Assembly (NCBI GenBank): GCA_023133415.1
Contig: JAGLWM010000006.1
Location: 1-51,436, forward strand
Reading direction: 5' to 3'
Length of the DNA: 51,436 nt
From: Candidatus Pacearchaeota archaeon
Lineage (GTDB): Archaea > Nanobdellota > Nanobdellia > Pacearchaeales > GW2011-AR1
A program made the translations under genes and the position numbers. Under the pieces are notes generated by a model, which saw only the letters and a program-made list of their open reading frames with translations, had not been told where the DNA came from and made no database searches. Positions 7,446-40,920 of this stretch are shown here, in pieces. Within the stretch, counting starts at the first letter, position 1, and the number at the start of each line of letters is the position of its first letter.

Positions 7446-7639
7446 TACTATTTTAGGTAAGTGTACTATTTAAATGTATCTCCTATTTTCTGTTTAGAAT
7501 AATAAAACGTACATTATTACAGTGTACACTATCAGAAGATAGAAAGATTTAAAAGGTAACTATATTCTATGATTGTACACTAAGCTTAAACAGGACATTT
7601 TAAGTTTAGGAATATGGGAAGCACTATGCTCTGCTTTTC

Positions 7640-7663
7640 GGCGGTCGGTATGGGACGACCGCC
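7640..7663. promoter_or_regulatory. GC-rich hairpin in transposase leader
   Basis: GGCGGTCG-8nt-CGACCGCC perfect 8-bp stem upstream of an AGGAG RBS and ATG 7685. Confidence 0.5.
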
Positions 7664-7684
7664 CTTAAATTCACAGGAGAGAAA

Positions 7685-8602
7685 ATGGAACAAATATATA
7701 AGAAAAATTCACTGCAAGAAGAAAAAACAGATTTTCTGAAAGCTACTTGTAACTTTTTAGATACTCTTGAGTTCGAGGAAGAACAGGTCAATGGAAGACC
7801 AAAAGCAGATCAAAGAGAAATCCTAAAACATTTATTGGTCATGTCATACAATGCTACAAGCTATAGAAGATCTCTCAGTGACATAAAGATATTATGCGAT
7901 CAGGGATTTGTTAAAAAAATAATTCCGAGAAGCACATTGAATGATTATGCAAATGATTCAAAAATAATAATATTGCTAGAAAGATTAATACAAATTTCAG
8001 CAACTTTTTTTAAAGAAATAGAGGACACTTTAATTGTTGATTCTAGCTGGTTTGGAGAAAAGATGTACGTTGGTGGATGTGGGCAAGTTCATGCTAATAA
8101 GCAGGGACTTTTTAATACAAGAAAGATACATGTTGGAATATTAAAAATATCAGGAGTTATCTGTTATGCAAAGGCAACTCATGGGACAAGACACGACTGC
8201 CCAATCTTTAAAGACATTTTAATAGAATCTTCCAATATATTTAATCTAAAATATTGCCTGGGAGATAAAGGATATTGTTCTAAAGAAAATTATATATTAT
8301 GTGAAGAAAAAAATATTACCGCATTCTTAGATTTTAAAAAGAACATGAAATCGTCTGGTGGAAAAAGTGCAATGTGGAAAGATCAAATTGATGTATGGAG
8401 AAATAATTCAGAACTTTGGCACAAATCATACAATTATAGAGTTTTGGTTGAAAGTGTATTCTCAAGAATAAAGAAAAAGCACAATAATTACTTAAGGTCT
8501 AGAAAAGCCGATTCAAGGGACATTGAAATGCTATTAAAATGTCTAGTTTATAATTTGACGTTGATTGGCAAGAGTTTCAAATCGGACAGTTCTCGGACTT
8601 AG
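7685..8602 (+). CDS. DDE transposase (IS4/IS5 superfamily, DDE_Tnp_1-like)
   Basis: LIVDSS, GDKGY and exact Y-2-R-3-E-6-K motif (YNYRVLVESVFSRIK); stop codon lies inside the right inverted repeat. Confidence 0.9.
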   Translation: MEQIYKKNSLQEEKTDFLKATCNFLDTLEFEEEQVNGRPKADQREILKHLLVMSYNATSYRRSLSDIKILCDQGFVKKIIPRSTLNDYANDSKIIILLERLIQISATFFKEIEDTLIVDSSWFGEKMYVGGCGQVHANKQGLFNTRKIHVGILKISGVICYAKATHGTRHDCPIFKDILIESSNIFNLKYCLGDKGYCSKENYILCEEKNITAFLDFKKNMKSSGGKSAMWKDQIDVWRNNSELWHKSYNYRVLVESVFSRIKKKHNNYLRSRKADSRDIEMLLKCLVYNLTLIGKSFKSDSSRT

Positions 8603-8604
8603 TC

Positions 8605-8613
8605 ACTAAAATC
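8605..8613 (+). repeat. Right target-site duplication ACTAAAATC
   Basis: Identical to 5477-5485. Confidence 0.9.
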
Positions 8614-8648
8614 AAAGAATTTATAAAATATAATATATAACTGGATAC

Positions 8649-9899
8649 ATGAAAAAAGTTTTAATAATTGGAATAGTATTTCTTATGGTTGTTGTAGTTA
8701 CAGCAACAGCAGTATTATTTCTTTCTCCCTATCAACCAGACCAGCCCCCATTAGCAGATGATGCTGGTTCAACACAACAGGGAATTCAACAGGTAGTAAA
8801 TGCTAATAATCAATTTGCTTTTGAACTCTATTCGGAATTAAATAAAGCTGAAAATGGTAATATTTTTTATTCTCCTTATAGCATTTCTACTGCTTTCGCA
8901 ATGACTTATGAGGGCGCAAGGGGACAAACAGCAAATGAAATGAAATCTGTTTTTCATTTTCCGGAAAATAATATCTTAAGACTAAATTTTGCTGCAATTT
9001 ATAATGAAATAAATAAAGGAACTAAAACTTATGAATTAAGGACAGGGAATGCTTTATGGGTTCAGCAAGATTATCCTTTTCTTGAAGATTACACAAGCAG
9101 GGTTGAAAAATACTATGGGGGGAAAGTAGCAAATTTAGATTTTGTTTCTGAAACTGAAAAATCAAGACAGACAATTAACGCATTTATTGAAGAACAAACT
9201 AACAATAAAATTAAAGATTTAATCCCTAAAGGCGTTCTTAATGCCATGACAAAACTTGTTCTTACGAACGCGATTTATTTTAAGGGAACTTGGGAATGGG
9301 AATTTGATAAATCTGATACTCGCGAACAAGATTTTAAAATTACAGAAAACGATATTGTCCAAGTCCCAATAATGTTCATGGATCCTGACAAAGCAACTTT
9401 TAATTATGCTGATATTGGAGATTTACAAATCTTAGAGCTACCCTACAAAGGTGAAGAAATTTCTATGTTAATCTTATTACCAACAGAAAATCTTGAAAGT
9501 ATAGAATCAACATTAACCATAGAAAAACTTAATGAATACAAATCACAAATGCAGGAAACAAAATTAGATGCAATCTATTTACCTAAATTTGAATTTGATT
9601 CAAAATACTTTATGAAAGAGACATTAAGCGTTTTGGGAATGCCAATCGCTTTCGGCAACGCAGACTTTTCTGGAATGACGGGGAACAAAGACTTATTTAT
9701 TAGCCAAGTAATCCATCAGGCTTATGTTAAAGTTGATGAAAAAGGGACAGAAGCCGCTGCTGTAACTGCTGTTATAATGGAGAAATTTATAGCAATGCCA
9801 AGAAATATCTTTAGAGCAGACCATCCATTTATCTTTATAATTCAGGAAAAAGAAACAGGAAATATTTTATTTATGGGAAGGGTTGTTGATCCTCGATAA
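8649..9899 (+). CDS. Serpin (serine protease inhibitor), secreted or membrane-anchored
   Basis: NIFYSPYSI, NAIYFKGTW, hinge EKGTEAAAVT, FRADHPFIF; hydrophobic N-terminus. Confidence 0.95.
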   Translation: MKKVLIIGIVFLMVVVVTATAVLFLSPYQPDQPPLADDAGSTQQGIQQVVNANNQFAFELYSELNKAENGNIFYSPYSISTAFAMTYEGARGQTANEMKSVFHFPENNILRLNFAAIYNEINKGTKTYELRTGNALWVQQDYPFLEDYTSRVEKYYGGKVANLDFVSETEKSRQTINAFIEEQTNNKIKDLIPKGVLNAMTKLVLTNAIYFKGTWEWEFDKSDTREQDFKITENDIVQVPIMFMDPDKATFNYADIGDLQILELPYKGEEISMLILLPTENLESIESTLTIEKLNEYKSQMQETKLDAIYLPKFEFDSKYFMKETLSVLGMPIAFGNADFSGMTGNKDLFISQVIHQAYVKVDEKGTEAAAVTAVIMEKFIAMPRNIFRADHPFIFIIQEKETGNILFMGRVVDPR

Positions 9900-9917
9900 A
9901 TTAAATCATAACAATAC

Positions 9918-10490
9918 TCAAAAAATCCTAATAAACCAATTCGGAAAAAATCCCGTATCCCCACAATGATAAACCTTATGAAAAATCTGATTCCAAATTA
10001 AATCAACTTCCATCTCATCCCGAATCCAATTATTCTCTTTCCCCAAAACTAACTGCCCCGGTTTAAATTTCATCGGCCTAAATCCAAAACACTCTTCAAA
10101 AATATCAATACCCTCATTAAAATATTCCTCACCTCTAAAAACTTCAAACTCACGATACGTATGATAAACCCCATGCATCTCTAATTTCTTTTCTCTCTTT
10201 AAAATCTCATTACACCATTCCTCATCAATAGAAACATTTTCAAATTTCGGAATCACATAATAAACATCTGCCAACTCCATCAAATCCTCCTCACAAAAAA
10301 CATTAGGTGAAACGTCATCAAGTTGACTAGGTAGAACCAATCTAATAAAAAACAAACCAACAATCAAAATAGCAACAGTTACACAAGCCGCGCGAAAACA
10401 TGCCCCAGTACTCCGCAATTGGGGGTATGCAAAACTGCGAAGCGCAACATTCCACCTACTACCTACTCCCTCGCGAAGCCACCATTTCAT
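9918..10490 (-). CDS. DUF2334/polysaccharide deacetylase-like protein
   Basis: QLDDVSP and MHGVYH motifs after a TM segment. Confidence 0.65.
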   Translation of the reverse strand: MKWWLREGVGSRWNVALRSFAYPQLRSTGACFRAACVTVAILIVGLFFIRLVLPSQLDDVSPNVFCEEDLMELADVYYVIPKFENVSIDEEWCNEILKREKKLEMHGVYHTYREFEVFRGEEYFNEGIDIFEECFGFRPMKFKPGQLVLGKENNWIRDEMEVDLIWNQIFHKVYHCGDTGFFPNWFIRIF

Positions 10491-10540
10491 AAAAAAACCA
10501 AATCACCAAACTTTTAAAATCCTTTTAACTAGCTAATTTT

Positions 10541-11110
10541 ATGGAAAACGCCAATACTCAACATCCAACCATTTCAGAAACCACAGCTTTGGAAATAGAA
10601 ACCGAATTCGAAACAAACGAAACTCAAGCCCAAGAAAAAGTAGAAGCCGCACTCTTCATCGCCGGCAGATTCCTAACCCTCCAAGAGCTAATCATGCTGA
10701 CCGACATCAACCCAATCATGCTAAAATCAATTCTCCATAACCTCGAAAAAAAATATTCTCACGGCACGCTCCGAATCATCCGAAGAGACGAATCTTACAA
10801 AATGGACATCGCAGAAAAATACCACTATCTTATTAATAAACTCGCAACAGGATCGACCGAATTCACAAAAGCCGAACAAGAAACTCTCGCAATCATCGCC
10901 TACAAACAACCAATAAAGCAGTCCGTCGTAATCAAAATCCGTGGCAACAAATCATATGAACACATCAAAAAGTTTCGTCAACTCGGACTCGTCATGACAA
11001 AACGCGAAGGCCACACCCTAACACTCTCCCTCTCCGAAGAATTTTACGAATACTTCAATGTAACCAAATCTAACAGCCAACAACAAAATAAAGAGAACCA
11101 AATTAAATGA
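10541..11110 (+). CDS. scpB: SMC-Scp complex subunit ScpB
   Basis: VEAALF, ETLAIIAYKQPI..IRG motifs. Confidence 0.92.
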   Translation: MENANTQHPTISETTALEIETEFETNETQAQEKVEAALFIAGRFLTLQELIMLTDINPIMLKSILHNLEKKYSHGTLRIIRRDESYKMDIAEKYHYLINKLATGSTEFTKAEQETLAIIAYKQPIKQSVVIKIRGNKSYEHIKKFRQLGLVMTKREGHTLTLSLSEEFYEYFNVTKSNSQQQNKENQIK

Positions 11111-11138
11111 AATTAGCAAAGTTGCCCAAGTCGTACCA

Positions 11139-11167
11139 CCAACTACCAACTACCAACTACCAACTAC
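11139..11167 (+). repeat. Heptamer tandem repeat (CCAACTA)x4
   Basis: Seen directly, intergenic. Confidence 0.85.
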
Positions 11168-11180
11168 AAGATTATTAAAA

Positions 11181-12413
11181 ATGGAATTTTTAACAATCCT
11201 ATATCTAACCTATACATTCATCGCATTTTACTTCCTAATGATCTACATTTTAGTCTACACCCAAAACCGGAAACAAATCTACGAAACAATTTCCCCAGAC
11301 AAAACAAGATCCCTATCAATCATCATCCCCTGTTTCAACGCAGAAGAAAACATCGCAAAAACCATCCAAGCACACCTAAATTCAGACTACAAAGGACTAA
11401 AAAAAATAATAGTAGTAGACGACTGCTCAACCGACAATTCTGCTACCATAATAAAACAACTCGCCAAAAAACACAAAAAAGTAATGTATGTAAAGACACC
11501 AAAAAACACAGGCAACGCAGCAGGCGCAAAAAACTACGGAAGTAAATTCGTAAAAACGAAGCTAATAGGATTCAGCGACGACGATTCTATGCCAAAGAAA
11601 AATGCAGTCTCAAAAATGGTAGGATTCTTCAACGACGAAAAAGTCGGAGCCGTGACATCTCGAGTCCTCATCAAAGGCAAGCAAAACTTCCTAACAAAAT
11701 CCCAAGCAATCGAATACAAAATTATCGCCTTCACTCGAAAACTCCTAGGATTCCTAGAATCAATCTACGTCACAAATGGACCCCTTAGTATTTACAGGAA
11801 AAAAGCATTCGATCAAGTCGGCGGCTTCGACCAAAAAAATCTAACCGAAGACATAGAGATAACATGGCACTTCGTATCAAAAGGCTGGAAAGTTCACATG
11901 GTAATCCCAGCAATAGTCTACACTTATCCTCCCACAACAATCAAGTCATGGTTTCATCAAAGAATCCGTTGGAACGTAGGCGGAATCCAAACAGTAGCAA
12001 AATACAGAAAAAAATTCTTCCAATGTGGAATGCTGGGATTATTCATCATGCCCTTCTTTATCCTCTCATGGTTTCTCGGAATCACCGGACTTTTCTTCTT
12101 AGCATACCGTTTCACAAAACACATCATGGTTAAATATCTCGTAGCAAAATATTCCGTAGCAGCAAATGTAGCCCTCATCACAATGAACGATATATCTCTA
12201 AACCCAAGCATCCTCTTCTTCTTCGGAATGCTCCTCTTTGCCCTCGGCCTAATCTATACAATCACCGCCCTCACCTACTCAAAAGAATCAGGAAAATTAA
12301 TCGGCCACAAAATCCGCGACATATTTATATATTCAATTTTCTATCTTCTCATGTACCCTCCACTATTAATAGTATCATTCTACAAGTACATGCGAGGCTA
12401 CAATACATGGTAA
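11181..12413 (+). CDS. Processive membrane GT2 glycosyltransferase
   Basis: VVDDCSTD, SDDD, TED and QRIRW (QxxRW) motifs; TM helices at both ends. Confidence 0.92.
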   Translation: MEFLTILYLTYTFIAFYFLMIYILVYTQNRKQIYETISPDKTRSLSIIIPCFNAEENIAKTIQAHLNSDYKGLKKIIVVDDCSTDNSATIIKQLAKKHKKVMYVKTPKNTGNAAGAKNYGSKFVKTKLIGFSDDDSMPKKNAVSKMVGFFNDEKVGAVTSRVLIKGKQNFLTKSQAIEYKIIAFTRKLLGFLESIYVTNGPLSIYRKKAFDQVGGFDQKNLTEDIEITWHFVSKGWKVHMVIPAIVYTYPPTTIKSWFHQRIRWNVGGIQTVAKYRKKFFQCGMLGLFIMPFFILSWFLGITGLFFLAYRFTKHIMVKYLVAKYSVAANVALITMNDISLNPSILFFFGMLLFALGLIYTITALTYSKESGKLIGHKIRDIFIYSIFYLLMYPPLLIVSFYKYMRGYNTW

Positions 12414-12414
12414 A

Positions 12415-13065
12415 ATGTTAAAGTCAAAAAAACACGTATTTTGGGAAGCACTCATAATCACAATAGTAATATTTCTCGCCGGCCTTTTCTTGGGAATGCT
12501 AATCGAAACAAGCAACTCAAACAAAATCTCAAACCTTTACCTTCAATCCGAAATCAGCCTAACTGATGCTATGGCCTCATCCAGACTTTTCGAAGACACA
12601 AATCTAAATTGCGACGCAATAAAAAATAACAATATCAAGCTCGCAGACCAAATATACGAAGAAGCAAAACTCTTGGAGCAATATGAAGAAGTAGGAAAAC
12701 TAACAGATAGTATGTTTTTTCTTCACAAAAAATACGATCTCTTACGAACACTCCTATGGACTTCAAACCAAAAATCCCTAAAAAGATGTAATAACTACAA
12801 TCTAGTTGTCTATCTTTACGAATATGAAACAGAAGACACAAAAATCAAAGCAATACAAAATGTCTGGTCAAAAATGCTCTTAGATATCAAAGAACAAAAC
12901 TACGACATCTTACTTCTTCCAATCGCAGCCGACCAAAATTTAACCTCACTAAATCTCCTAATGGAAGAACATCAAATTAAAAAGTTCCCAGCCCTCATAA
13001 TTAATAATGACGAAATCCTCTACGAGCTAAAAAACACAAGTTCAGTCTACCGCCTTCTAAACTAA
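12415..13065 (+). CDS. Membrane-anchored hypothetical protein, possible C-terminal thioredoxin-like fold
   Basis: N-terminal TM; C-terminal IKKFPALIIN; coupled to the GT2 gene. Confidence 0.6.
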   Translation: MLKSKKHVFWEALIITIVIFLAGLFLGMLIETSNSNKISNLYLQSEISLTDAMASSRLFEDTNLNCDAIKNNNIKLADQIYEEAKLLEQYEEVGKLTDSMFFLHKKYDLLRTLLWTSNQKSLKRCNNYNLVVYLYEYETEDTKIKAIQNVWSKMLLDIKEQNYDILLLPIAADQNLTSLNLLMEEHQIKKFPALIINNDEILYELKNTSSVYRLLN

Positions 13066-13230
13066 CGTATATACCCAACCACATATTTCTTTAAAAAATA
13101 AAATTTCCTATCTTAATCATGGAACTAAATCAAAATGCAGTTTTGGAATCTAAGTTTCTCTACTTGCGAGAAATTATGCCCTCATCAGAGGGTACTCCGG
13201 CGGAGCACCTTTTCTAAAGAGAAAGAAATC

Positions 13231-14010
13231 ATGGGAATCTGCATAATATGTAAAAAATCTTCCGAAGAAACAAAACTCTACCCGGGAATCCTAGAAGCCG
13301 AAATAATCAACATTTGCGAAGAATGTGCCGAAGATCAAAAAATTCCAATCATCAAAAAACCCTCCGAATCCCAGCTAAACCAAGCAGACAAAACCTACTC
13401 CGTTAGAGAACGTCTCGACAGAATGGCAGGACGGCGTGACATAACTCAAATTTCCAACGACCAAATCACAACCCAACGAAATCTCGCAAAACTCAAAATG
13501 CCAAAACCAAAACAACACCATCCAGATGTCTTAGACAACTACTATTGGACGCTAAATATGGCAAGACGACGAGCCAAAATGACGATATCCCAACTCGCAA
13601 AAAAAATAGACACAACACCCTACATAATCCAAGATATAGAAAAAGGCATCCTTTCAAAAGATTTCAAAGAAATATTCCTAAAACTCGAAGCCCTCTTCGG
13701 AATCAAACTTCTAAAGACTCACAAACCCCAAATCAATTTCACAAGAAAACATCGTAATCAAGAACAAGAAATATTGAAAGCGGTAGAGGAAAAAATGAAA
13801 AATCCAGAAGGCACACTAGAAGAAGACGAAGAAATAGAGGCAATCCATGAAAAAATAGAACGCGAGGAGATAAGGCTCTCAAAAAGAGAAGATTTACAAA
13901 ACATAACATTAAACGATCTAGTCGACAGAAAAAGAACGCGAGAAAAACGAAAACTTCAAGCAAAACAAAACGAAATGCTCGGCGATGACATAGATATTAA
14001 AGAACTCTAA
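13231..14010 (+). CDS. aMBF1-like zinc-ribbon + HTH protein with acidic C-terminal extension
   Basis: CIIC..ICEEC, then ARRRAKMTISQLAKKI..IQDIEKG HTH; start placed at ATG 13231. Confidence 0.75.
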   Translation: MGICIICKKSSEETKLYPGILEAEIINICEECAEDQKIPIIKKPSESQLNQADKTYSVRERLDRMAGRRDITQISNDQITTQRNLAKLKMPKPKQHHPDVLDNYYWTLNMARRRAKMTISQLAKKIDTTPYIIQDIEKGILSKDFKEIFLKLEALFGIKLLKTHKPQINFTRKHRNQEQEILKAVEEKMKNPEGTLEEDEEIEAIHEKIEREEIRLSKREDLQNITLNDLVDRKRTREKRKLQAKQNEMLGDDIDIKEL

Positions 14011-14108
14011 AAAACCTTTATCAAAACCAAAATATGAAACAACAATGTTACTATTCTCCCGACTAGCTGACAACTGATTACTGACAGCGAAGCGTACTGC
14101 AGGCGAAG

Positions 14109-14735
14109 TTATCCAAGATAACGAAGCCTACCCGGACGCGGCTCATAAACCAATCCCTCTTCCAACAATTTCTTAACCTCACCCTCAATCGCCTCAGGAC
14201 TAGCCTCAACATCCATAACCAAAACATCCCTGTCAATCCCACCATCACTTTCCTTTTCCTTAATCTTATCCAAAATCTGATTCTTCAAACTATTATCCCC
14301 TTTCTCATCAACAACCAAATCCTTCCGAGCATTCTGAATCTCCAACTTCCGAACCAACAGCCACCGAGCATCAACCTTCTTCACAATCTCCGGAATCATA
14401 TAAATCTCCCCGTTCCATTCCCTCATATTCCCAATAATCTGCAAAGTTTCCCCCTGCATAATATTTTTCACTCGATCAATATCCTCACCAAAAACCTTCA
14501 ACTTCAACTGCCCCGAAGCATCATCCACGGTCAAAGAAGCAAAACTCTTCTCACCCTCCTGCACAAACTTATCAACACAATTAGCCAACAAATTAACCCG
14601 CACAACCTTCCTATCTCCCAACTCCAAAAACAGAAATTTCCCCTCATTCATCATCGGCACACCCTTCAGAATATCACCAATTCGCAACTTATACGCAACA
14701 TTTCTTTTCCGAATCTCACCCGTATTTTCAACCAT
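14109..14735 (-). CDS. OB-fold + winged-helix protein (RPA32-like)
   Basis: RNVAYKLRI, VDDASG, C-terminal LLEEGLVYEPRPG. Confidence 0.8.
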   Translation of the reverse strand: MVENTGEIRKRNVAYKLRIGDILKGVPMMNEGKFLFLELGDRKVVRVNLLANCVDKFVQEGEKSFASLTVDDASGQLKLKVFGEDIDRVKNIMQGETLQIIGNMREWNGEIYMIPEIVKKVDARWLLVRKLEIQNARKDLVVDEKGDNSLKNQILDKIKEKESDGGIDRDVLVMDVEASPEAIEGEVKKLLEEGLVYEPRPGRLRYLG

Positions 14736-14766
14736 ATTTGGAAATGTTAATATGACTTTATAAGGA

Positions 14767-14886
14767 TTATTGGGATTGAGTTGATGAGTTGCTTTCCATC
14801 GCCTCTAATCGCTGAATAGAAGTCTCCAAATAATCTTTCTCAATATCTATCCCAACATATTTCCGCCCAAGCTCGACACAAACAAC
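14767..14886 (-). pseudogene. C-terminal remnant of a beta-class N6/N4 DNA methyltransferase
   Basis: Manual translation VVCVELGRKYVGIDIEKDYLETSIQRLE.. matches the segment following the F-x-G-x-G-T-T motif; no start codon. Confidence 0.65.
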
Positions 14887-14892
14887 CTAAAC

Positions 14893-15054
14893 TTAAATAT
14901 TTCTAATCTTTGAATCCCAAGTGACCATCCATTCAATGTCGTTTAAATTAAACCCTTTCTCTATAAGCCAAGGCTCATAATCCCCAAATTTTCGATCCTC
15001 TACATCTCCCATATAAACACTCCCATCACAGTAATTCAAAATAATTATCCTCAT
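14893..15054 (-). CDS. Small hypothetical protein (53 aa)
   Basis: ORF from MRIIILNYCD; no recognisable motif. Confidence 0.45.
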   Translation of the reverse strand: MRIIILNYCDGSVYMGDVEDRKFGDYEPWLIEKGFNLNDIEWMVTWDSKIRNI

Positions 15055-15103
15055 AAATAAAGATAAAAAACATTCTTTATAATAATGATCCAAAACTATC
15101 CAG

Positions 15104-15874
15104 TTACAACAAAAACTCATATCTACCATTCCCACAGAAACTCAAAACCTTATTGTCTCTAAGCACTTGCAACTGCTGCCTAATCTTTGCATGTATATTA
15201 TTATTCATAGGATGCAATTCTTTCAAATATCTGTCATATTTGTAAATTTCCCTTAAATCAAATTTGTTATCTAATTCTTCAACACATTTCAAGACATCAC
15301 TAGCCCAGCCCCTAAACTCAGGTTTTTTAGAATTCATAAAAAACATTTTTTTCCAAACCTTATTTATTTTGTTTCTTTCTATAATCTTTTCATCTTTCAC
15401 AATTTGAATTTTTCCTTCTTCTGGAAGTCTATCTAGCAAAAAATTACAACCAACCCACCCAGCCCTTTTTGCATTCTTACTTAAGGGATTCCTTTTCTCT
15501 ATCATAGAAACACTAATAAAAAACTTAGGAATCAAAAACAAACTTTTAATAGTCCAATTAGCGTTCTCATAATTCATCAGAAAAAAATTCGGAGAACTAT
15601 CTCTAGAAATTATATTCATCATTGTATTATATTCTCCATCAACAACTTTTCTCTTAAACTCATTTTTAGAAGCCTTCAATTGAAATTCATTTTTACATTT
15701 CTCACAAAAGAAGTCACTTCCCTTTTGATTATTTGGAAAATCATCAACACCTTCATTCAAACAACACGGGCAATACATCTCACGACTAAACCAATTCTCA
15801 GTCAAAATTCTAGCAATTTGAGAATTGCTTTTATAATTTTGTAGAACCTCTTTTTGATACATTGACAAATCCAT
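15104..15874 (-). CDS. DpnI-like / Dam-replacing methyl-directed restriction endonuclease
   Basis: SQIARILTENW, YCPCC, DFFCEKC..EFQLK, RAGWVGCN and C-terminal HPxNNNIxAKIRQQLQVLRD winged helix. Confidence 0.9.
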   Translation of the reverse strand: MDLSMYQKEVLQNYKSNSQIARILTENWFSREMYCPCCLNEGVDDFPNNQKGSDFFCEKCKNEFQLKASKNEFKRKVVDGEYNTMMNIISRDSSPNFFLMNYENANWTIKSLFLIPKFFISVSMIEKRNPLSKNAKRAGWVGCNFLLDRLPEEGKIQIVKDEKIIERNKINKVWKKMFFMNSKKPEFRGWASDVLKCVEELDNKFDLREIYKYDRYLKELHPMNNNIHAKIRQQLQVLRDNKVLSFCGNGRYEFLL

Positions 15875-16135: not shown

Positions 16136-16198
16136 TCAGCAACAAATCAGAAAGTCTTTTTATACCTTCCCACAAGCGCGAACAAACCACAACCAACT

Positions 16199-16307
16199 CG
16201 CCAAACCCCCAGCGAAGCTGAACTTTTCCACAAACAAAGTTTGTGAACCTCTCCATCGACAAAGTCGATGAACCTTTCCAGAAAACCAAAGTTTTCTGAA
16301 CTTTTCC
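16199..16307. repeat. Array of four variable hairpins with AACYTYTC linkers
   Basis: CGCCAAACCCC, then CAGC-GAA-GCTG, CACAAAC-AAA-GTTTGTG, CATCGAC-AAA-GTCGATG, CAGAAAAC-CAAA-GTTTTCTG, each followed by the linker. Confidence 0.9.
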
Positions 16308-20078: not shown

Positions 20079-20940
20079 TGCCGAAAATTATCTCTTCAGT
20101 CGTTCTCCGATAAATTCCTACAAACTGCTTCCCACAAAACACTGCAAACCTATCATCAGTTTTAATTCCTTTAACGTTGCTGGTGATATTATCTCTAAAC
20201 AACGGTCTTCCAATATGAAGTGATTTAATCGCCTTTTTTTCAACCTCAACAACAGGCAAAACTTTCCGAATAGCATCTTCAGCAGGAACAACCATTCTTC
20301 TCAAATCCCCTTCATCTCCATTTTTCCACCTATCAACAGCAGATTCAAAATTATCTAGACTAACCAAATCACTCTCATCAAAAATCCCAGCCTCAATCCT
20401 TCTCAACTCTCCCATATGCGCCCCGCCAATCATCTCACCCAAATCAGAACAAAGCTTCCTAACATAAGTCCCACCCTCAACCCGACACTCAAATAAAAAA
20501 GACCTACCCTTGTTACCCAAGTCTTCCTCTTCTGATTCCTGACACCTACCACCTGACACCTCGAGAAGTTTCCAGTAGTAAACTTCTCGTTCCCTCTCTT
20601 CTCTCTTAACAGCCGCTCGATGTGGCGGCGTCTGCTTAATCTTTCCAACAAAATTCGCATCAATCAACTTTTGCAACTCCTCTAAATCACACCCCTGATG
20701 CGTCTCCAAAATCCCAACATAACTCTTATCATGCCGAATAAAATAACCAGCCAACTTACAAGCCCGCCCCAAAGTAATCGGCAAAACTCCAGTCACCTTC
20801 GGATCAAGCGTTCCCATATGCGACGTCTTCTTCAACCCCAACGCCCTCTTTACAAACTCACTCACCGAATACGACGTCGGCCCCGCTGGCTTATCAATAT
20901 TAATCAAACCAAAATTCAATAAATCATTCATATCTTTCAT
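20056..20940 (-). CDS. truB: Pseudouridine synthase Cbf5/TruB
   Basis: IDKPAGPTS, HMGTLDPKVTG, GTYVRKL, MGELRR, PUA domain. Confidence 0.95.
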   Translation of the reverse strand: MKDMNDLLNFGLINIDKPAGPTSYSVSEFVKRALGLKKTSHMGTLDPKVTGVLPITLGRACKLAGYFIRHDKSYVGILETHQGCDLEELQKLIDANFVGKIKQTPPHRAAVKREEREREVYYWKLLEVSGGRCQESEEEDLGNKGRSFLFECRVEGGTYVRKLCSDLGEMIGGAHMGELRRIEAGIFDESDLVSLDNFESAVDRWKNGDEGDLRRMVVPAEDAIRKVLPVVEVEKKAIKSLHIGRPLFRDNITSNVKGIKTDDRFAVFCGKQFVGIYRRTTEEIIFGRSEFVFN

Positions 20941-21719: not shown

Positions 21720-22478
21720 CTACTTCTTCAAACTTTTCCGAACAGGAGTCGTCTTCTTCAGATGCTTTCCTTCAGCCGTATGCTTCAACTCCTTAGCCTT
21801 CCCTTTCGCAACCATAGCCGCCTTCTCAGCCTCAGCTTTCTCATCTTCCTTCTCCTCAACCTTATCATCAACCCCATCCTTATCCTTATCCGCAACCTCT
21901 TCTTTCTTAACAGCCTTAACATCCTTCTTCCCACCCTCAGCTATAGCTTTCATTTTAGCCTCTCGAGCCATCTTAAACCTCACAACTTCAGGAACATCAG
22001 CCAATTCAACATAAACAATCTCACCAACCTTCTTCGCTAAAACCTTAATCTTATTCAAAGGTTTCTTAATTCCCCTAAACCAAATCTCATTATTCAAATG
22101 AATATCAACCTTAACCTTTCTCAAATCCCCATCCCGAACATTCATATGCCTCACCATAAACTCCTTCAAAACTTTTACAGCCTTCTTCGCCCTACGATAC
22201 TGCGGAACATTTAAACTTCCCTTCCTCAACGGCACAACATATTCCCTTTCAAGCTCAACCTTCTTCTCCTTTTCCTTTTTCTTCTCAACTTTAGCAATCG
22301 CAGGCTTAGATTCTTTTTTCACCTCTTCAACTTTTTTAACATCCCCAATTTTCTCAGTTGCACCAATCCCTGACTCCTGACTCCTGACATCTGACTTCTT
22401 GTTTTCAATCCCAACTTTCTCAGTTGCACCAATCCCTGACTCCTGACTCCTGACATCTGACTTCTTGTTTTCAACCAT
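21720..22478 (-). CDS. rpl31e: Ribosomal protein eL31 with long N- and C-terminal extensions
   Basis: EREYVVPL..RRAKKAV..LNNEIWFRGI core. Confidence 0.92.
   Translation of the reverse strand: MVENKKSDVRSQESGIGATEKVGIENKKSDVRSQESGIGATEKIGDVKKVEEVKKESKPAIAKVEKKKEKEKKVELEREYVVPLRKGSLNVPQYRRAKKAVKVLKEFMVRHMNVRDGDLRKVKVDIHLNNEIWFRGIKKPLNKIKVLAKKVGEIVYVELADVPEVVRFKMAREAKMKAIAEGGKKDVKAVKKEEVADKDKDGVDDKVEEKEDEKAEAEKAAMVAKGKAKELKHTAEGKHLKKTTPVRKSLKK
22350..22474. repeat. 59-bp identical direct repeat (66-bp period) within rpl31e N-terminus
   Basis: 22350-22408 = 22416-22474; encodes ENKKSDVRSQESGIGATEK twice. Confidence 0.92.
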
Positions 22479-36841: not shown

Positions 36842-37165
36842 ATGGAACTAGACGTAACAGATACAAACTTCCAAAAAGAAGTAATAGAAAAATCAAACGA
36901 AATCCCAGTCCTAGTCGACTTCTGGGCAACCTGGTGCGGACCCTGTGTGATGTTAAAACCAACACTTCAAAAAATTGCAAAAGAATACGAAGGCAAATTC
37001 ATTCTAGCAAAAGCCGCAACAGACGATAATTCTGACGCAGCATCCAAATTTGGAATAATGTCAATTCCAGCAGTAAAGCTTTTCAAAAACGGAAAAGTCG
37101 TAGACGAATTCGTCGGCGCACAACCAGAAGCCACAATCAAGCAGTGGCTAAACCAAAAATTATAA
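36842..37165 (+). CDS. trxA: Thioredoxin
   Basis: VDFWATWCGPC, SIP. Confidence 0.96.
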   Translation: MELDVTDTNFQKEVIEKSNEIPVLVDFWATWCGPCVMLKPTLQKIAKEYEGKFILAKAATDDNSDAASKFGIMSIPAVKLFKNGKVVDEFVGAQPEATIKQWLNQKL

Positions 37166-37225
37166 TTATTTTTAAAATTTAATCGAAATTCGCATCATCC
37201 AAAGCATAAAGCGATTAGCACATCT

Positions 37226-37423
37226 TTATTTCCTCGGCATAATAATCCACATAATCAAATACCCAAAAAACCCAATCCCAAAACTAAAAATCGTTATCAG
37301 AACCCAAAATAATCTTACCAACGTCGGATCAATCTCAAAATATTCAGCAATACCAGCACAAACTCCACCAATCATCGAGTCCCTCTCCGCCGCCCGATAC
37401 AACCGCTTAATCTTCCTAGCCAT
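37226..37423 (-). CDS. PspC domain protein
   Basis: RLYR..MIGGVCAGIAEYFEIDPTLVRL..YLIMWIIMP. Confidence 0.92.
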   Translation of the reverse strand: MARKIKRLYRAAERDSMIGGVCAGIAEYFEIDPTLVRLFWVLITIFSFGIGFFGYLIMWIIMPRK

Positions 37424-37445
37424 GATAATGACATACAAATGCCTT

Positions 37446-38069
37446 TTATAAAATTTTCCCCACATCTTCCCGAATCATTTCAATAATCTCTGGAAACTCA
37501 CTAATATCAAAATGCCCACCCTTACTGTCATAAACAATAATTTTAGAGTTACTCAATTTCTCCTTGTATTTATCAGCGCTATCAACTAAAACACAATCAT
37601 CATCTTTAGAAAACATCAACGTCACATTGTCACAATTCTCCTCAATCAAACTCAAATCCTCTCCCAGCTCAAACCCACCAACTAAATCTTCCCCACTAAC
37701 TAACTCATCATTAAATGGAGCAGCAATTAAATAAGTAGCCAAGATTTTTTTATCAATCCGATTTTCACTTAAATACTTAGACAAAAAAATACCGCCAAGC
37801 GAACTTCCAATCAAAATAACATCATCACCTACCACATCCAAATAATTTTCAAAAACAATCTTCCACTCCTCATAACTAGCATTGTCCTGCAATGGCATCC
37901 TCGGCTTAATAATATGAAAATCTTCACCTAGCTCAGTCCTCAAGTGCTTTCCATGCCAACGAACCTTCTCATTTAATCGAACATCTTTGTTCCTCAAATA
38001 ATCCAAATAATCTTCCCGATTCTTAAAAGTCATTCCTCCATGAACATATAAAATTTGAAATTTTTTCAT
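37446..38069 (-). CDS. Alpha/beta hydrolase (RBBP9/YdeN-like)
   Basis: VHGG, GSSLG, SKDD, GHF. Confidence 0.85.
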   Translation of the reverse strand: MKKFQILYVHGGMTFKNREDYLDYLRNKDVRLNEKVRWHGKHLRTELGEDFHIIKPRMPLQDNASYEEWKIVFENYLDVVGDDVILIGSSLGGIFLSKYLSENRIDKKILATYLIAAPFNDELVSGEDLVGGFELGEDLSLIEENCDNVTLMFSKDDDCVLVDSADKYKEKLSNSKIIVYDSKGGHFDISEFPEIIEMIREDVGKIL

Positions 38070-38114
38070 ACAAAATAAATGTTAATATCTTTTATAAAAT
38101 TATTCCTCAAAATC

Positions 38115-38210
38115 CGCCAAGCCCCGTGCAAAGCACAACCACCATTATTCAAAGAATAATAACCACCATTTTTGAAAAAAATAACCACCGACACCCTCGT
38201 GTCAACCACC
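38115..38210. repeat. Array of four variable hairpins with invariant AACCACC linkers
   Basis: CGCCAAGCCCC, then GTGC-AAA-GCAC, ATTATTC-AAA-GAATAAT, ATTTTT-GAA-AAAAAT, GACAC-CCTC-GTGTC, each followed by AACCACC. Confidence 0.92.
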
Positions 38211-38215
38211 GCCAA

Positions 38216-38782
38216 CTAATTTCCTCTTCTCTTATTCGCTCTCAAACTTGGGAAAGCCTTTGGAACTTTCTCTCTAGAATTTCTCTGCCCTCTAGCCTTT
38301 TTCCCAGCCGAAGTCAATCCTCTCAAAGCCCTCTTCTTCGGAGCCTTAACAAATTCCCCTAACTGCTTATCATTCAAAATCCCGGCATCTTTTCTATCAA
38401 CCAGAATAATCTCATAAAAATAATTCATCCCATCTTTACCAATCCAATACGAACCCAAAACTTCCATATTAACATACTTCCTTGCAACCCTATTCTCCGC
38501 AATCTCTTTATAATTCATCCTCAAATTTTTTCTAATATGCAACCTCTTCGTTCTCCTCGCTTTATTCGGCCGACTCCTCTTATGCCCACCTCTCTTAATC
38601 TTAACACGAACAACAACAACACCCTTCTTCGCCTTATATCCAAGAGACCTCGCTCTATCAAGCCTCAATGGTCTCTCAACACGAGTAATCGCACCATCCT
38701 TCCGCCACTCAATCATTCTCTCTCTAAGCAATTTCACATCCGGCTTTTTCCATGCTTCCCTTAAATACTTCACAATTCCCAT
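38216..38782 (-). CDS. rpl15e: Ribosomal protein eL15
   Basis: RLDRARSLGYKAKKG, SYWIGKDG, RGLTSAGKK. Confidence 0.97.
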   Translation of the reverse strand: MGIVKYLREAWKKPDVKLLRERMIEWRKDGAITRVERPLRLDRARSLGYKAKKGVVVVRVKIKRGGHKRSRPNKARRTKRLHIRKNLRMNYKEIAENRVARKYVNMEVLGSYWIGKDGMNYFYEIILVDRKDAGILNDKQLGEFVKAPKKRALRGLTSAGKKARGQRNSREKVPKAFPSLRANKRRGN

Positions 38783-38891
38783 ATTGTCTCTATCAAAAAT
38801 TCCTTTTTAAAGTTAATCATTCTCCCAAGGTTTTTATAGCATCTCAAAACTATTTCTTAACGCTGTTCGAATTTGGAGCCGGATAACTCTA

Positions 38892-39290
38892 TCATCGATA
38901 AGCAGGAAACCATTTTTTCTTAGTCAAATATGTTTTCAAGTCATCTATCAAAACAATTCTAGGAATATAAATAGTTCCATACGGATCAGGATAGCCAGGC
39001 ATCACATCAGGCCTATTTTTTTCCATCTGGCAAAGTAATGGAACACCAACTAAATTATGTCCCTTTGCTCTTGTATGCCCACCGTCCTTTTTACGTCCGT
39101 CAGTTGTGTCTACATAATGCCTGCCAACAATCGAAAATTCCAATTCACTAATTTGATAAACAAAAACAGGTGGAAACTTATCCTTTACTCTAATACCTCG
39201 AATTATGGCATCAACCGCTTGCTTACTTCTTTTATCTTCCCATCCCCATAGTGTATGTTTATTCCAATCAAAATAAAATTGCTTGTCCAT
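38892..39290 (-). CDS. Hypothetical protein, possibly ParB/Srx-like
   Basis: FPPVFV..DGGHTR loosely resembles the ParB-N GxxR motif. Confidence 0.5.
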   Translation of the reverse strand: MDKQFYFDWNKHTLWGWEDKRSKQAVDAIIRGIRVKDKFPPVFVYQISELEFSIVGRHYVDTTDGRKKDGGHTRAKGHNLVGVPLLCQMEKNRPDVMPGYPDPYGTIYIPRIVLIDDLKTYLTKKKWFPAYR

Positions 39291-39388
39291 AATAAATCGT
39301 ATTTTATTTACATTTAAAAATACTTCACCTCCAAAGTTTTTTAACCAATTTTGAATATATCAAGATTTAGAAAATTAAATAATAGCTA

Positions 39389-39703
39389 TTACTCTATAGC
39401 CTCTTCGCACTTCTTTTCTAAATCATCAAGAAAACCTTCGCTAAAAAAGTTGCAAGTTTTATCTCTTATAGTGAGAGGAATGTAACGAACTTCATGTATC
39501 CCTCGTAGTAAATTAGAAGCACTTTCTTCGTTAGGGTTATTTACAAATTCTTTCCAAGTTTCTACACAAGTTAACGTAGCAATCAAATAATCTGCTACTT
39601 TCCTATGGGAACTATAAAGTATATTTCCTTCATCATCATATAGATTTGATCTCATAATTTCTTTTCTGTTTCTTATTATATAAATTTTTCTATCTGTTAC
39701 CAT
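39389..39703 (-). CDS. Hypothetical protein
   Basis: 104-aa AT-rich ORF. Confidence 0.55.
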   Translation of the reverse strand: MVTDRKIYIIRNRKEIMRSNLYDDEGNILYSSHRKVADYLIATLTCVETWKEFVNNPNEESASNLLRGIHEVRYIPLTIRDKTCNFFSEGFLDDLEKKCEEAIE

Positions 39704-39830
39704 TTCTAAATTACTTCAATTTTCCAAATCCCACAGAACTATCCCGTTCCCAAAACCACAAATGAAGCTCCAAAACGAAAATCTTTACTTATAAAAACAT
39801 CAAACGAGGGAAAAATCAAATATTATTTTT

Positions 39831-40069
39831 TTAGACTGAAAAATCCACATCAGTTAATATTACTTCAATATTTGCTTTTGGATGTGTTGATGATCTATCC
39901 AATGAATTGTCGAACTTTCAAAACCCTATATACTTTCCCATCCCCTATGCAATAAGTTTCATTTTCTCTAGGCAAATCTTGATATTCTACCTTATCATAT
40001 ATTTCCCTTGCTACAAATTGCAGGTTTTCTTCATTTTTTTTCTATTATTTTAAGTTTATATGTTTTCAT
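39831..40069 (-). pseudogene. Frameshifted small hypothetical gene downstream of tRNA-Ile
   Basis: GGAGGAG RBS + MKTYKLKIIEK; a plausible reading continues after removing one A from an A8 run and again after a second +1 shift. Confidence 0.4.
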
Positions 40070-40140
40070 TTGTTTATACTCCTCCACATTCCTCAAAGCG
40101 TTTTCCTCGCACAGGACAGTTCTGTTCTCAAAACCACAAA

Positions 40141-40214
40141 TGAGCCCGCTGTGATTTGAACACAGGACCTCTGCCTTATCAGAGCAGCGCGCTACCTGGC
40201 TGCGCCACGGGCTC
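40141..40214 (-). tRNA. tRNA-Ile(GAT)
   Basis: Cloverleaf: GAGCCCG/CGGGCTC acceptor, GCGC D-stem, CTGCT-CTGATAA-GGCAG anticodon arm, CTGTG-TTCAAAT-CACAG T-arm; no intron, CCA not encoded. Confidence 0.97.
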
Positions 40215-40266
40215 ATTTAGTCATTAACAAAATTCCGATTTATAAAACTAACCATTCACCCCAACA

Positions 40267-40308
40267 CTGACACCTGATTGCTGCCACCTGATCTCTGTCC
40301 CCTGACCC
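40267..40308 (+). repeat. Degenerate heptamer tract (CTGNNNN)x6
   Basis: CTGACAC CTGATTG CTGCCAC CTGATCT CTGTCCC CTGACCC, abutting the stop codon at 40309. Confidence 0.75.
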
Positions 40309-40920
40309 CTATCCCTTCATCTCAACCATCACCCTCTCTCCCTCAACCCGCCATCCCAAAATCTCAACCTTCAATGGAATCACCTTTACATAACACCTAT
40401 CCTTCGAATACGCCCGAATCTCAATTCCAGTTTCTAACTCCGTCATAACAATATCTTCCTCCCTCTGAACACCCGGCGCTTCAATCTCATATATAATAAC
40501 ATCTCCAAGTCTCCTCACCTTAGACTCTGCCTTAACCTTTTTCAACTTCGCTCTCCTCTCACGCTCCTCATGAGAAATTTTCATAACCTCCAACTTTTTC
40601 GGCGACTCCTTTTTCATAACCTGCCCCGTCGGCAATTGACCAATCTGAATTTTAAATCCCTTCGGTATCCCCTGCTTCCCTTCAAAATCCATATTTCCCA
40701 TTTGTCTCTCAAGTTGTTTAACCAAAGAATTCACAATCTTATTAACCCCAAAAGGTAACTTCAAACTTTCCTGAACTTTCCCTGCATCATCAGAACCCAA
40801 CATCCCAAGATCCCCTTGCGAACCAATCTTCGAACCCCGAACACCAGCTCCACACCAAGGACAATAATTGAATTTCCTATTAATCTTCTCGGCACACGCT
40901 TTACACTTTCTTTCAAACAT
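40309..40920 (-). CDS. Zinc-ribbon + Hsp20-like domain protein
   Basis: CKAC..CPWCG; C-terminal IYEIEAPGV..IEIRA. Confidence 0.65.
   Translation of the reverse strand: MFERKCKACAEKINRKFNYCPWCGAGVRGSKIGSQGDLGMLGSDDAGKVQESLKLPFGVNKIVNSLVKQLERQMGNMDFEGKQGIPKGFKIQIGQLPTGQVMKKESPKKLEVMKISHEERERRAKLKKVKAESKVRRLGDVIIYEIEAPGVQREEDIVMTELETGIEIRAYSKDRCYVKVIPLKVEILGWRVEGERVMVEMKG

Follow-up and report, generated by a model that had tools for sequence, protein, structure and literature searches.

A four-hairpin array behind rpl15e of a Pacearchaeota archaeon as a candidate member of a modular, structure-maintained repeat family

The stretch of 51,436 nucleotides analysed here (the window; contig JAGLWM010000006.1 of the Candidatus Pacearchaeota archaeon assembly GCA_023133415.1) carries, directly behind the ribosomal protein gene rpl15e, an array of four hairpins joined by a constant seven-base linker. 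We put the probability at about 50% that this array is a copy of a modular repeat which is confined to a lineage of DPANN-type archaea and maintained in its structure, and which is spread by copy-choice and has at most a passive role at the 3' end of its gene. A family of such arrays exists, and its hairpins keep pairing through compensatory change. Its copies either follow stop codons directly, on the G-rich sense strand, or occupy in-frame positions within genes; no RAYT was found in the three array-bearing genomes searched. Throughout, G000 denotes the genome of the window (836 kb), whereas G041 (a congener), G003 and G061 are the relatives relevant to the arrays.

Read in the sense of rpl15e (minus strand), the TAG stop codon is followed by TTGGC, by four rounds of GGTGGTT plus a perfect hairpin, and then by GGGGCTTGGCGG. 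The linkers and hairpins listed below were read in the sequence.

38216 to 38782, minus strand: rpl15e (Pfam Ribosomal_L15e, E 9e-58), upstream of the array in the reading direction, with its stop codon TAG at 38216-38218
38209 to 38215, minus strand: TTGGCGG, which repeats the final 7 nt of the end box in direct orientation and overlaps linker 1 by 2 nt
38204 to 38210, minus strand: linker 1, GGTGGTT
38190 to 38203, minus strand: hairpin 1, GACAC-GAGG-GTGTC, 5 bp
38183 to 38189, minus strand: linker 2, GGTGGTT
38168 to 38182, minus strand: hairpin 2, ATTTTT-TTC-AAAAAT, 6 bp, including a T7 run
38161 to 38167, minus strand: linker 3, GGTGGTT
38144 to 38160, minus strand: hairpin 3, ATTATTC-TTT-GAATAAT, 7 bp
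38137 to 38143, minus strand: linker 4, GGTGGTT
38126 to 38136, minus strand: terminal hairpin, GTGC-TTT-GCAC, 4 bp
38114 to 38125, minus strand: end box GGGGCTTGGCGG, which recurs at other arrays and at hairpin-plus-heptamer elements
38090 to 38099, minus strand: putative TATA-like box TTTTATAAAA, by reading, about 25 nt before the ATG of the next gene (hyd)
37446 to 38069, minus strand: hyd, a serine-hydrolase-like gene of 207 aa (Pfam Ser_hydrolase, E 4e-5), just downstream of the array

Read on the plus strand, the linker AACCACC starts at 38137, 38161, 38183 and 38204, with a spacing of 24, 22 and 21 nt, and the last copy stands 5 nt from the rpl15e stop codon. All four spacers (38126-38203) are perfect palindromes with stems of 4, 7, 6 and 5 bp. 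The sequence-only reading had described precisely this arrangement of four perfect hairpins joined by an invariant AACCACC next to rpl15e, and the description was confirmed in the sequence, far beyond chance. The heptamer matches 8 times in the whole 51-kb window, and 4 of these matches are the linkers of the array; with both strands counted, the 836-kb genome contains 111 exact copies. Folding the minus strand as single-stranded DNA reproduces these four hairpins and nothing else (z -4.21, with 0 of 200 shuffles as good), and the plus strand as RNA reaches a z of -4.19. For the spacers, we used viral contigs with the same triple-linker pattern as a control, in which 80 loci examined among at least 121 stretches listed yielded none with a palindromic spacer; an end-anchored stem of at least 4 bp was present in 11/13 archaeal-array spacers, compared with 0/173 viral spacers of 11-17 nt flanked by GGTGGTT. 

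The copies of CCGCCAA noted at both ends of the array are indeed present (38114-38120 and 38209-38215), but this repeat alone is not beyond chance, because some direct repeat of at least 7 nt occurs in 85% of 1500 random 210-nt segments of the genome (at least 9 nt in 21.5%). A target-site duplication was likewise considered and rejected, the border repeats (TTGGCGG here, TTGATTAA in locus L035, 9-mers elsewhere) being no commoner than in the 1500 random segments. The end box GGGGCTTGGCGG has 37 genome matches with at most 2 mismatches, about seven of them attached to arrays by reading, and an identical 12-mer stands in the G041 locus L036. Contigs of four DNA runs from two studies were compared, one of these runs being possibly the source. 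In the three further metagenome runs the window array is unaltered, with neither indels nor a gain or loss of units, so that unit turnover was not seen at this array; the sole variant was 38211 G>A (C>T on the minus strand), in run X2. No Rfam family matched the array: at gathering thresholds tRNA alone matched, and the E-value mode gave one chance-level match (E 1.9).

The proposal that the array represents a repeat family in which structure rather than stem sequence is kept was borne out by further copies beyond chance, by covarying stems and by compensatory changes between orthologous arrays. By reading, G000 contains about nine multi-hairpin arrays, all G-rich on the sense strand of the upstream gene; G041 contains at least six with GGTGGTT-type linkers, and more occur in G061. 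These copy numbers were taken from reading because neither census scan was clean: the census of perfect-stem chains has a high background, and the linker-restricted census, which returned 1 and 2 arrays (0 in shuffles), misses arrays whose stems extend by T-G/T-A pairs into the linker. A blind scan for hairpin chains with similar linkers returned 10 in G000 versus 0-1 in 4 shuffles, and 5 of these 10 are family arrays. Among 49 genus genomes, the triple-linker pattern was confined to G000 and G041, with zero matches to a reversed control pattern; across 401 genomes of the order, two more genomes match, with spacers that are not palindromic.

The second GGTGGTT array of G000 is an in-frame part of the final 45 codons of an Aminotran_5 gene and reads as repeated GGS plus five residues. 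The four triple-linker loci of G041 are in frame in RtcB, in frame in a PP-loop ATPase, directly behind rps10 and directly behind MscS, and two more G041 arrays are located upstream of hyd and 3' of gyrB. The frames of the G041 RtcB and PP-loop ATPase genes stay open and align on both sides of the array, and in the coding copies only the GGS from the linker recurs while the five residues between vary. Related arrays, in which a GARRGGTT linker is followed by a C-stem-TTY-stem-G hairpin (GGTTCA-type), are found in G000 and G061, and one further family array lies within the window itself.

16198 to 16298, minus strand: second family array in the window, 3' of MCM, with four GARAGGTT-type linkers, terminal hairpin CAGC-TTC-GCTG and end box GGGGTTTGGCGA

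Some sister arrays have G-poor linkers such as GAAAAGTT. The commonest terminal module is GGTT-CAGC-TTC-GCTG-GGGG, and a scan of 185,579 species genomes for it gave 19 matches, 4 archaeal and 15 bacterial. The three archaeal matches read (L250, L255 and L256, of four) all have family context, in records labelled Nanoarchaeota or Woesearchaeota archaeon, and the two bacterial matches read (L239 and L246, of 15) showed no family context.

Evidence on the maintenance of the stems comes from the gene on the other side of the window array. Orthologues of hyd were found in only 3/49 genus genomes (G000, G041 and G003), and an array 3' of rpl15e was found in 0/31 relatives. The gene order in G041 and G003 is p489, p203, hyd, rpl15e, and that in G000 is p489, p203, tRNA-Ile, two orphan ORFs, rpl15e, array, hyd. 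G041 has an array between p203 and hyd, whereas G003 is without one there. Because the G041 array is collinear with the window array, the array has travelled with hyd, and its place behind rpl15e is secondary; the notion that it marks a rearrangement junction was revised in view of this orthologous array. The local rearrangement in G000 covers window positions 36842-40920 (compared with L070 of G041 and L069/L002 of G003) and contains tRNA-Ile at 40140-40215 and the orphan ORFs at 39389-39703 and 38892-39290, neither with a Pfam match. In G000 pspC follows hyd, the hyd stop overlapping the pspC start by 20 nt. The G003 hyd orthologue (G003:C18:19141-19743, L069) has an in-frame TAG and no upstream array, and may be a pseudogene.

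The G041 array beside hyd starts with a first hairpin on the p203 stop codon, followed by GGGGGTT [GTTTCGC-TTT-GCGAAAC], GGTGGTT [ATTTTTC-TTT-GAAAAAT], GGTGGTT [ATCGTTC-TTT-GAATGAT], GGAGGTA [GCGC-TCAT-GCGC] and GAGGCTTGGCTA. Aligned with the window array, the orthologue of hairpin 2 (ATTTTTC-TTT-GAAAAAT) has an inner C-G pair present in one genome only, that of hairpin 3 (ATCGTTC-TTT-GAATGAT) has one compensated pair and one G-T, and that of the terminal hairpin (GCGC-TCAT-GCGC) has one compensated pair. The alignable hairpins thus differ by two T-A to C-G double changes and one A-T to G-T change, with zero disruptive changes, and the remaining hairpin was wholly replaced yet is perfect in both genomes. 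Three of the four linkers are nearly unchanged, the spacer to the start codon is unalignable, and a TATA-like box similar to TTTTATAAAA also precedes the G041 hyd gene. Compensatory stem changes between orthologous loci, named in the sequence-only reading as something to look for, are therefore present. Its statement that the four stems share no sequence stands insofar as the stems differ and all pair, but the window stems are not wholly unrelated to everything else, since orthologues of three of the four hairpins are recognisable in G041. In 19 units of the 7-3-7 type, drawn from three genomes and preselected for pairing, all 7 stem pairs covary, with 52 doubly changed cells compared with 14.7 in shuffles; because the copies are related, neither these cells nor the four-linker counts given below are independent events.

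G-rich heptamer repeats form a class spread over the whole genome, and the linker of the window array is one of its members. Among tandem periods in G000, 7 is the most frequent (292 of 1469 TRF rows), with units of the GGNNGTC or GGTGGTY type. Behind gyrB in G000, a hairpin is followed by (GGTGGTC)x4 and then GGTGCTTGGCTG, that is, by the word and the box of the window array without interleaved hairpins; G041 also has an element 3' of gyrB, with different contents, and G003 and G001 are without one. Among 184 skewed heptamer arrays of G000 and G041, four copies is the mode (69, versus 36 with 3 and 48 with 2), a peak that is absent from periods 6, 8 and 9, and four linkers were counted by reading in 11/14 hairpin arrays. 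At least 4 GG tracts are present in 97/184 heptamer arrays, 22 of which have at least 4 GGG tracts. Of heptamer arrays at most 60 nt 3' of a called gene, 27/28 are G-rich in sense. By a rough gene call, the G-rich strand carries 573/628 genes in G000 and 627/649 in G041; gene sense can hence not be told apart from replication strand, as more than 90% of called genes share that strand and no array adjoins a minority-strand gene.

Several observations accompany this class. Strand asymmetry in G000 and G041 is extreme, with 172,451 G versus 92,223 C on the sense strand (crude gene set), and whole G041 contigs have a GC skew of +0.40 or of -0.30 to -0.39. Behind the p203 stop (window 40287-40308, minus strand), G000 has six NNNTCAG-type heptamers at the place where G041 has its hairpin array. 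G-rich heptamer arrays also lie in frame in the G000 RtcB gene (G000:C8:15853-15886, a 22-residue insert at a site that differs from that of the G041 array) and in the G000 PP-loop ATPase gene (G000:C3:10123-10164, at the same site as the G041 hairpin array). Within the window, heptamer arrays were noted at 11138-11167 (ACCAACT x4.3), at 20538-20561 (CCTGACA x3.4) and, inside a 66-nt tandem duplication (22344-22474), twice as CCTGACT x4 (22369-22396 and 22435-22462).

Traces of copying are visible between sites. Over its final 52 nt, the Aminotran_5 array of G000 shares 90% identity with the array in the G041 PP-loop ATPase gene, which argues that multi-unit segments are copied between unrelated sites. 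Empty sites were found at rps10 and at the RtcB position in G000, and 3' of rpl15e in the 31 relatives. First hairpins are formed between the final codons or the stop codon of a gene (GyrB, S10, MscS or p203) and an exact inverted copy of 2-12 bp, and the empty rps10 end of G000 has the same codons with the inverted copy absent. Genome-wide in G000, a perfect hairpin of at least 7 bp is centred on the stop codon in 28/872 genes versus 2/307 mid-gene controls, and about 11 of these 28 have G-rich heptamers or linkers after them. Two G000 genes (C12:2381-3406 and 7449-15308) share an identical 9-bp hairpin at their stop codons, AGTTAGTCC-GGAG-GGACTAACT, with G-rich heptamers after it, and a reverse transcriptase gene (C12:5237-5824) lies between them. 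RVT_1 was detected in 19/49 genus genomes and was absent from G041, without correlation with the arrays. The balance of G-T versus A-C mismatches was tried as an RNA signature and abandoned, both kinds occurring in the coding copies in numbers too small to use.

On this basis, we propose a model of the family to which we give nearly even odds, in which arrays are spread and remodelled by replication-linked copy-choice rather than by a transposase and survive only where they are harmless. Copying may proceed by template switching, fold-back copying or slippage. A full module would start with an optional hairpin formed on the end of the gene upstream; then would come four G-rich linkers of seven or eight bases, each with a free-stem hairpin, the last of them a short GC hairpin, and the end box GGGGCTTGGCGG. 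On a single strand, the spacers would fold out as hairpins and bring the four linkers side by side, so that in structure the array may be equivalent to the heptamer repeats of four units that are common in this genome. At the window site, the effect would be at most that of a folded block which ends or protects the rpl15e transcript ahead of the hyd promoter. Against copy-choice, the stems always stop at the linkers, which would not be expected from simple fold-back copying. Retention beside hyd in two genomes, through a local rearrangement and with three of four linkers nearly constant, also suits a selected function.

Such a function is the substance of the foremost alternative, which is possible although we consider it unlikely: a signal selected by the host, in which four G-rich words, held by looped-out hairpins and read on the sense single strand, would form a quadruplex-hairpin hybrid or a protein platform that terminates, insulates or stabilises the upstream transcript, or acts on the lagging-strand template. 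Consistent with this, the orthologous array beside hyd was kept with pairing-preserving changes, four units are preferred in plain heptamer arrays as well as in hairpin arrays, and arrays lie within a few nucleotides of stop codons on the sense strand. The part of Rehm et al. 2015 (PMC4692102) drawn on here describes the same placement at stop codons and the same four-unit bias for the GGGNATC repeats of Xanthomonas and Nostoc, which form quadruplexes and are mostly transcribed. In G000 and G041, the plain heptamer arrays resemble these repeats in their preference for four copies, their proximity to stop codons and their G-rich sense strand, whereas the four units of the window array are non-tandem and separated by hairpins, the tracts are GG instead of GGG, and the lineage is archaeal. 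The window array also holds one match to a terminator consensus, made of hairpin 1 extended by G-T pairs and then GGTTATTTTT, in the T run of hairpin 2. However, the array is absent 3' of rpl15e in the 31 relatives and upstream of hyd in G003, sister copies lie in frame in RtcB, the PP-loop ATPase and the Aminotran_5 tail, where a terminator would harm, linkers such as GAAAAGTT are too poor in G to form a quadruplex, and the sense-strand RNA folds no better than shuffles (z only -0.31 to -1.29). 

Both ideas might be joined, in a combination that seems rather unlikely to us, if the arrays were products of an undescribed, transposase-free writing at gene ends whose finished four-word, hairpin-looped fold is a strand-specific signal on single-stranded DNA or RNA. 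Replication-coupled copy-choice (or an unrecognised enzyme) would build a hairpin from the last codons of the gene, G-rich seven-base words and further fold-back hairpins would then be added up to a set of four, and the finished fold could be a quadruplex-hairpin hybrid in these extremely strand-skewed DPANN genomes.

Movement by a dedicated enzyme is a further explanation, which we regard as improbable. The arrays would then be non-autonomous mobile elements handled by an unrecognised protein that reads single-stranded hairpins, a functional analogue of RAYT, IS200/IS605 TnpA or an integron integrase from another protein family. The constant 3' end box with its terminal hairpin would suit such an enzyme, as would the patchy presence among close relatives, the near-identical segments at non-orthologous sites and an orientation fixed on the G-rich strand, which, provided that it is the leading strand, would correspond to the sequence of the lagging-strand template. 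Against it, no gene emerged as a candidate, the arrays lack a fixed 5' end and show no target duplication beyond chance, the module order varies between copies, and the first hairpins are made of local sequence. The arrays also differ from MITEs, in that the two ends of an array (optional local hairpin and end box) are not inverted copies of each other and no fixed-length duplication flanks them, flanking direct repeats of 7-9 nt being as frequent in random segments.

The specific proposal of the sequence-only reading, an HUH substrate of the REP/RAYT kind, did not hold up. BIMEs are mosaic, intergenic arrays of hairpins with short conserved motifs between them. According to the sections of Di Nocera et al. 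2013 (PMC3733652) consulted here, REPs are small, clustered palindromic units found mostly downstream of genes (co-oriented or convergent) and sometimes inside them, replication genes included; they have been proposed as terminators or mRNA stabilisers, carry an unpaired GTAG or CGTC tag at one end of a palindrome of conserved sequence, and in the CGTC class lack a dedicated transposase. The archaeal arrays share with REPs and BIMEs small palindromic units that cluster, with short conserved motifs separating them, mostly 3' of genes and now and then within genes, and this likeness is what favours mobilisation of a REP/BIME-type element by a RAYT (Y1 HUH transposase). That reading is largely refuted and now very improbable: Pfam Y1_Tnp (PF01797) was found in 0/3 array-bearing genomes (G000, G041 and G061), and the same search was positive in 6/14 control genomes, although, with completeness of 85.6%, 83% and 69%, respectively, an enzyme may have been missed. 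The archaeal arrays moreover keep the linker and leave the stem sequence free, the reverse of REPs; no GTAG or CGTC tag stands beside the window stems, which have GGTGGTT on both sides; all units share one orientation, whereas REP units are often paired in opposite orientation; about nine arrays occur per genome versus hundreds of REPs; and the host is archaeal, with first hairpins built from the host gene's own end. That the stretch has no identity of its own, as a chance cluster or as a small gene in the 49-codon open frame that spans it (38066-38215), has a negligible probability, chance being excluded by the heptamer counts, the single-strand DNA fold and the palindromic-spacer control, and coding by the periods of 21, 22 and 24 nt, which put the linkers in three different frames.

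The closest known kinds are REP/BIME elements, the Rickettsia palindromic elements that occur in frame, and the G-rich heptamer repeats with four units described from Xanthomonas and Nostoc. Heptamer repeats of the STRR type are also known from cyanobacteria. In the portion of the source used here (PMC10969869), Rickettsia palindromic elements are about 150 bp long and sit in frame in unrelated housekeeping genes, without breaking them, where they encode a conserved peptide. The sister copies in RtcB, the PP-loop ATPase and the Aminotran_5 tail are likewise in frame without disruption; unlike in those elements, the one constant part of the encoded sequence is the Gly-Gly-Ser read from the linker, and the copy behind rpl15e is non-coding. 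The likeness to CRISPR is limited to the alternation of a constant and a variable part, and the earlier label "reverse of CRISPR" is merely descriptive: the repeat is 7 nt long and unstructured, the spacers are palindromes of 11-17 nt, there are four units, and there is no leader; with such an anatomy, cas genes would not be expected. A literature search on such hairpin arrays in archaea found nothing of the kind, in agreement with the initial impression that the family has not been described there.

To our knowledge, small structured repeats (REP, BIME, RPE and heptamer repeats) are known almost only from bacteria, the spread of many of them is unsolved, and DPANN terminators are uncharacterised. 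Here, an archaeal lineage with very small genomes carries a family of reversed logic, with a constant linker and a free but always paired stem, for which no RAYT was found in three genomes, which takes hairpins from the ends of host genes and which occurs, tolerated, within essential genes such as RtcB. Such a compact system provides a test case for the origin of transposase-less palindromic repeats, for whether the four-unit rule of G-rich heptamer repeats reflects a folded structure, and for how DPANN archaea mark gene ends. The arrays also matter for annotation, because they lengthen open frames and insert Gly-Gly-Ser-rich loops into conserved proteins.

Two minor observations concern neighbouring features. 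A gene of 120 aa with a 23S_rRNA_IVP (four-helix-bundle) domain (G000:C16:19801-20437, L039) has five-hairpin arrays on both sides, and a gene similar to 23S_rRNA_IVP comes after the array in locus L256; a tie between the arrays and this gene was considered and rejected, as other arrays adjoin unrelated genes. Elsewhere in the window, positions 1567-1788 hold a tandem repeat of 30/90 nt in about six copies with 86% identity, in an apparently coding region.
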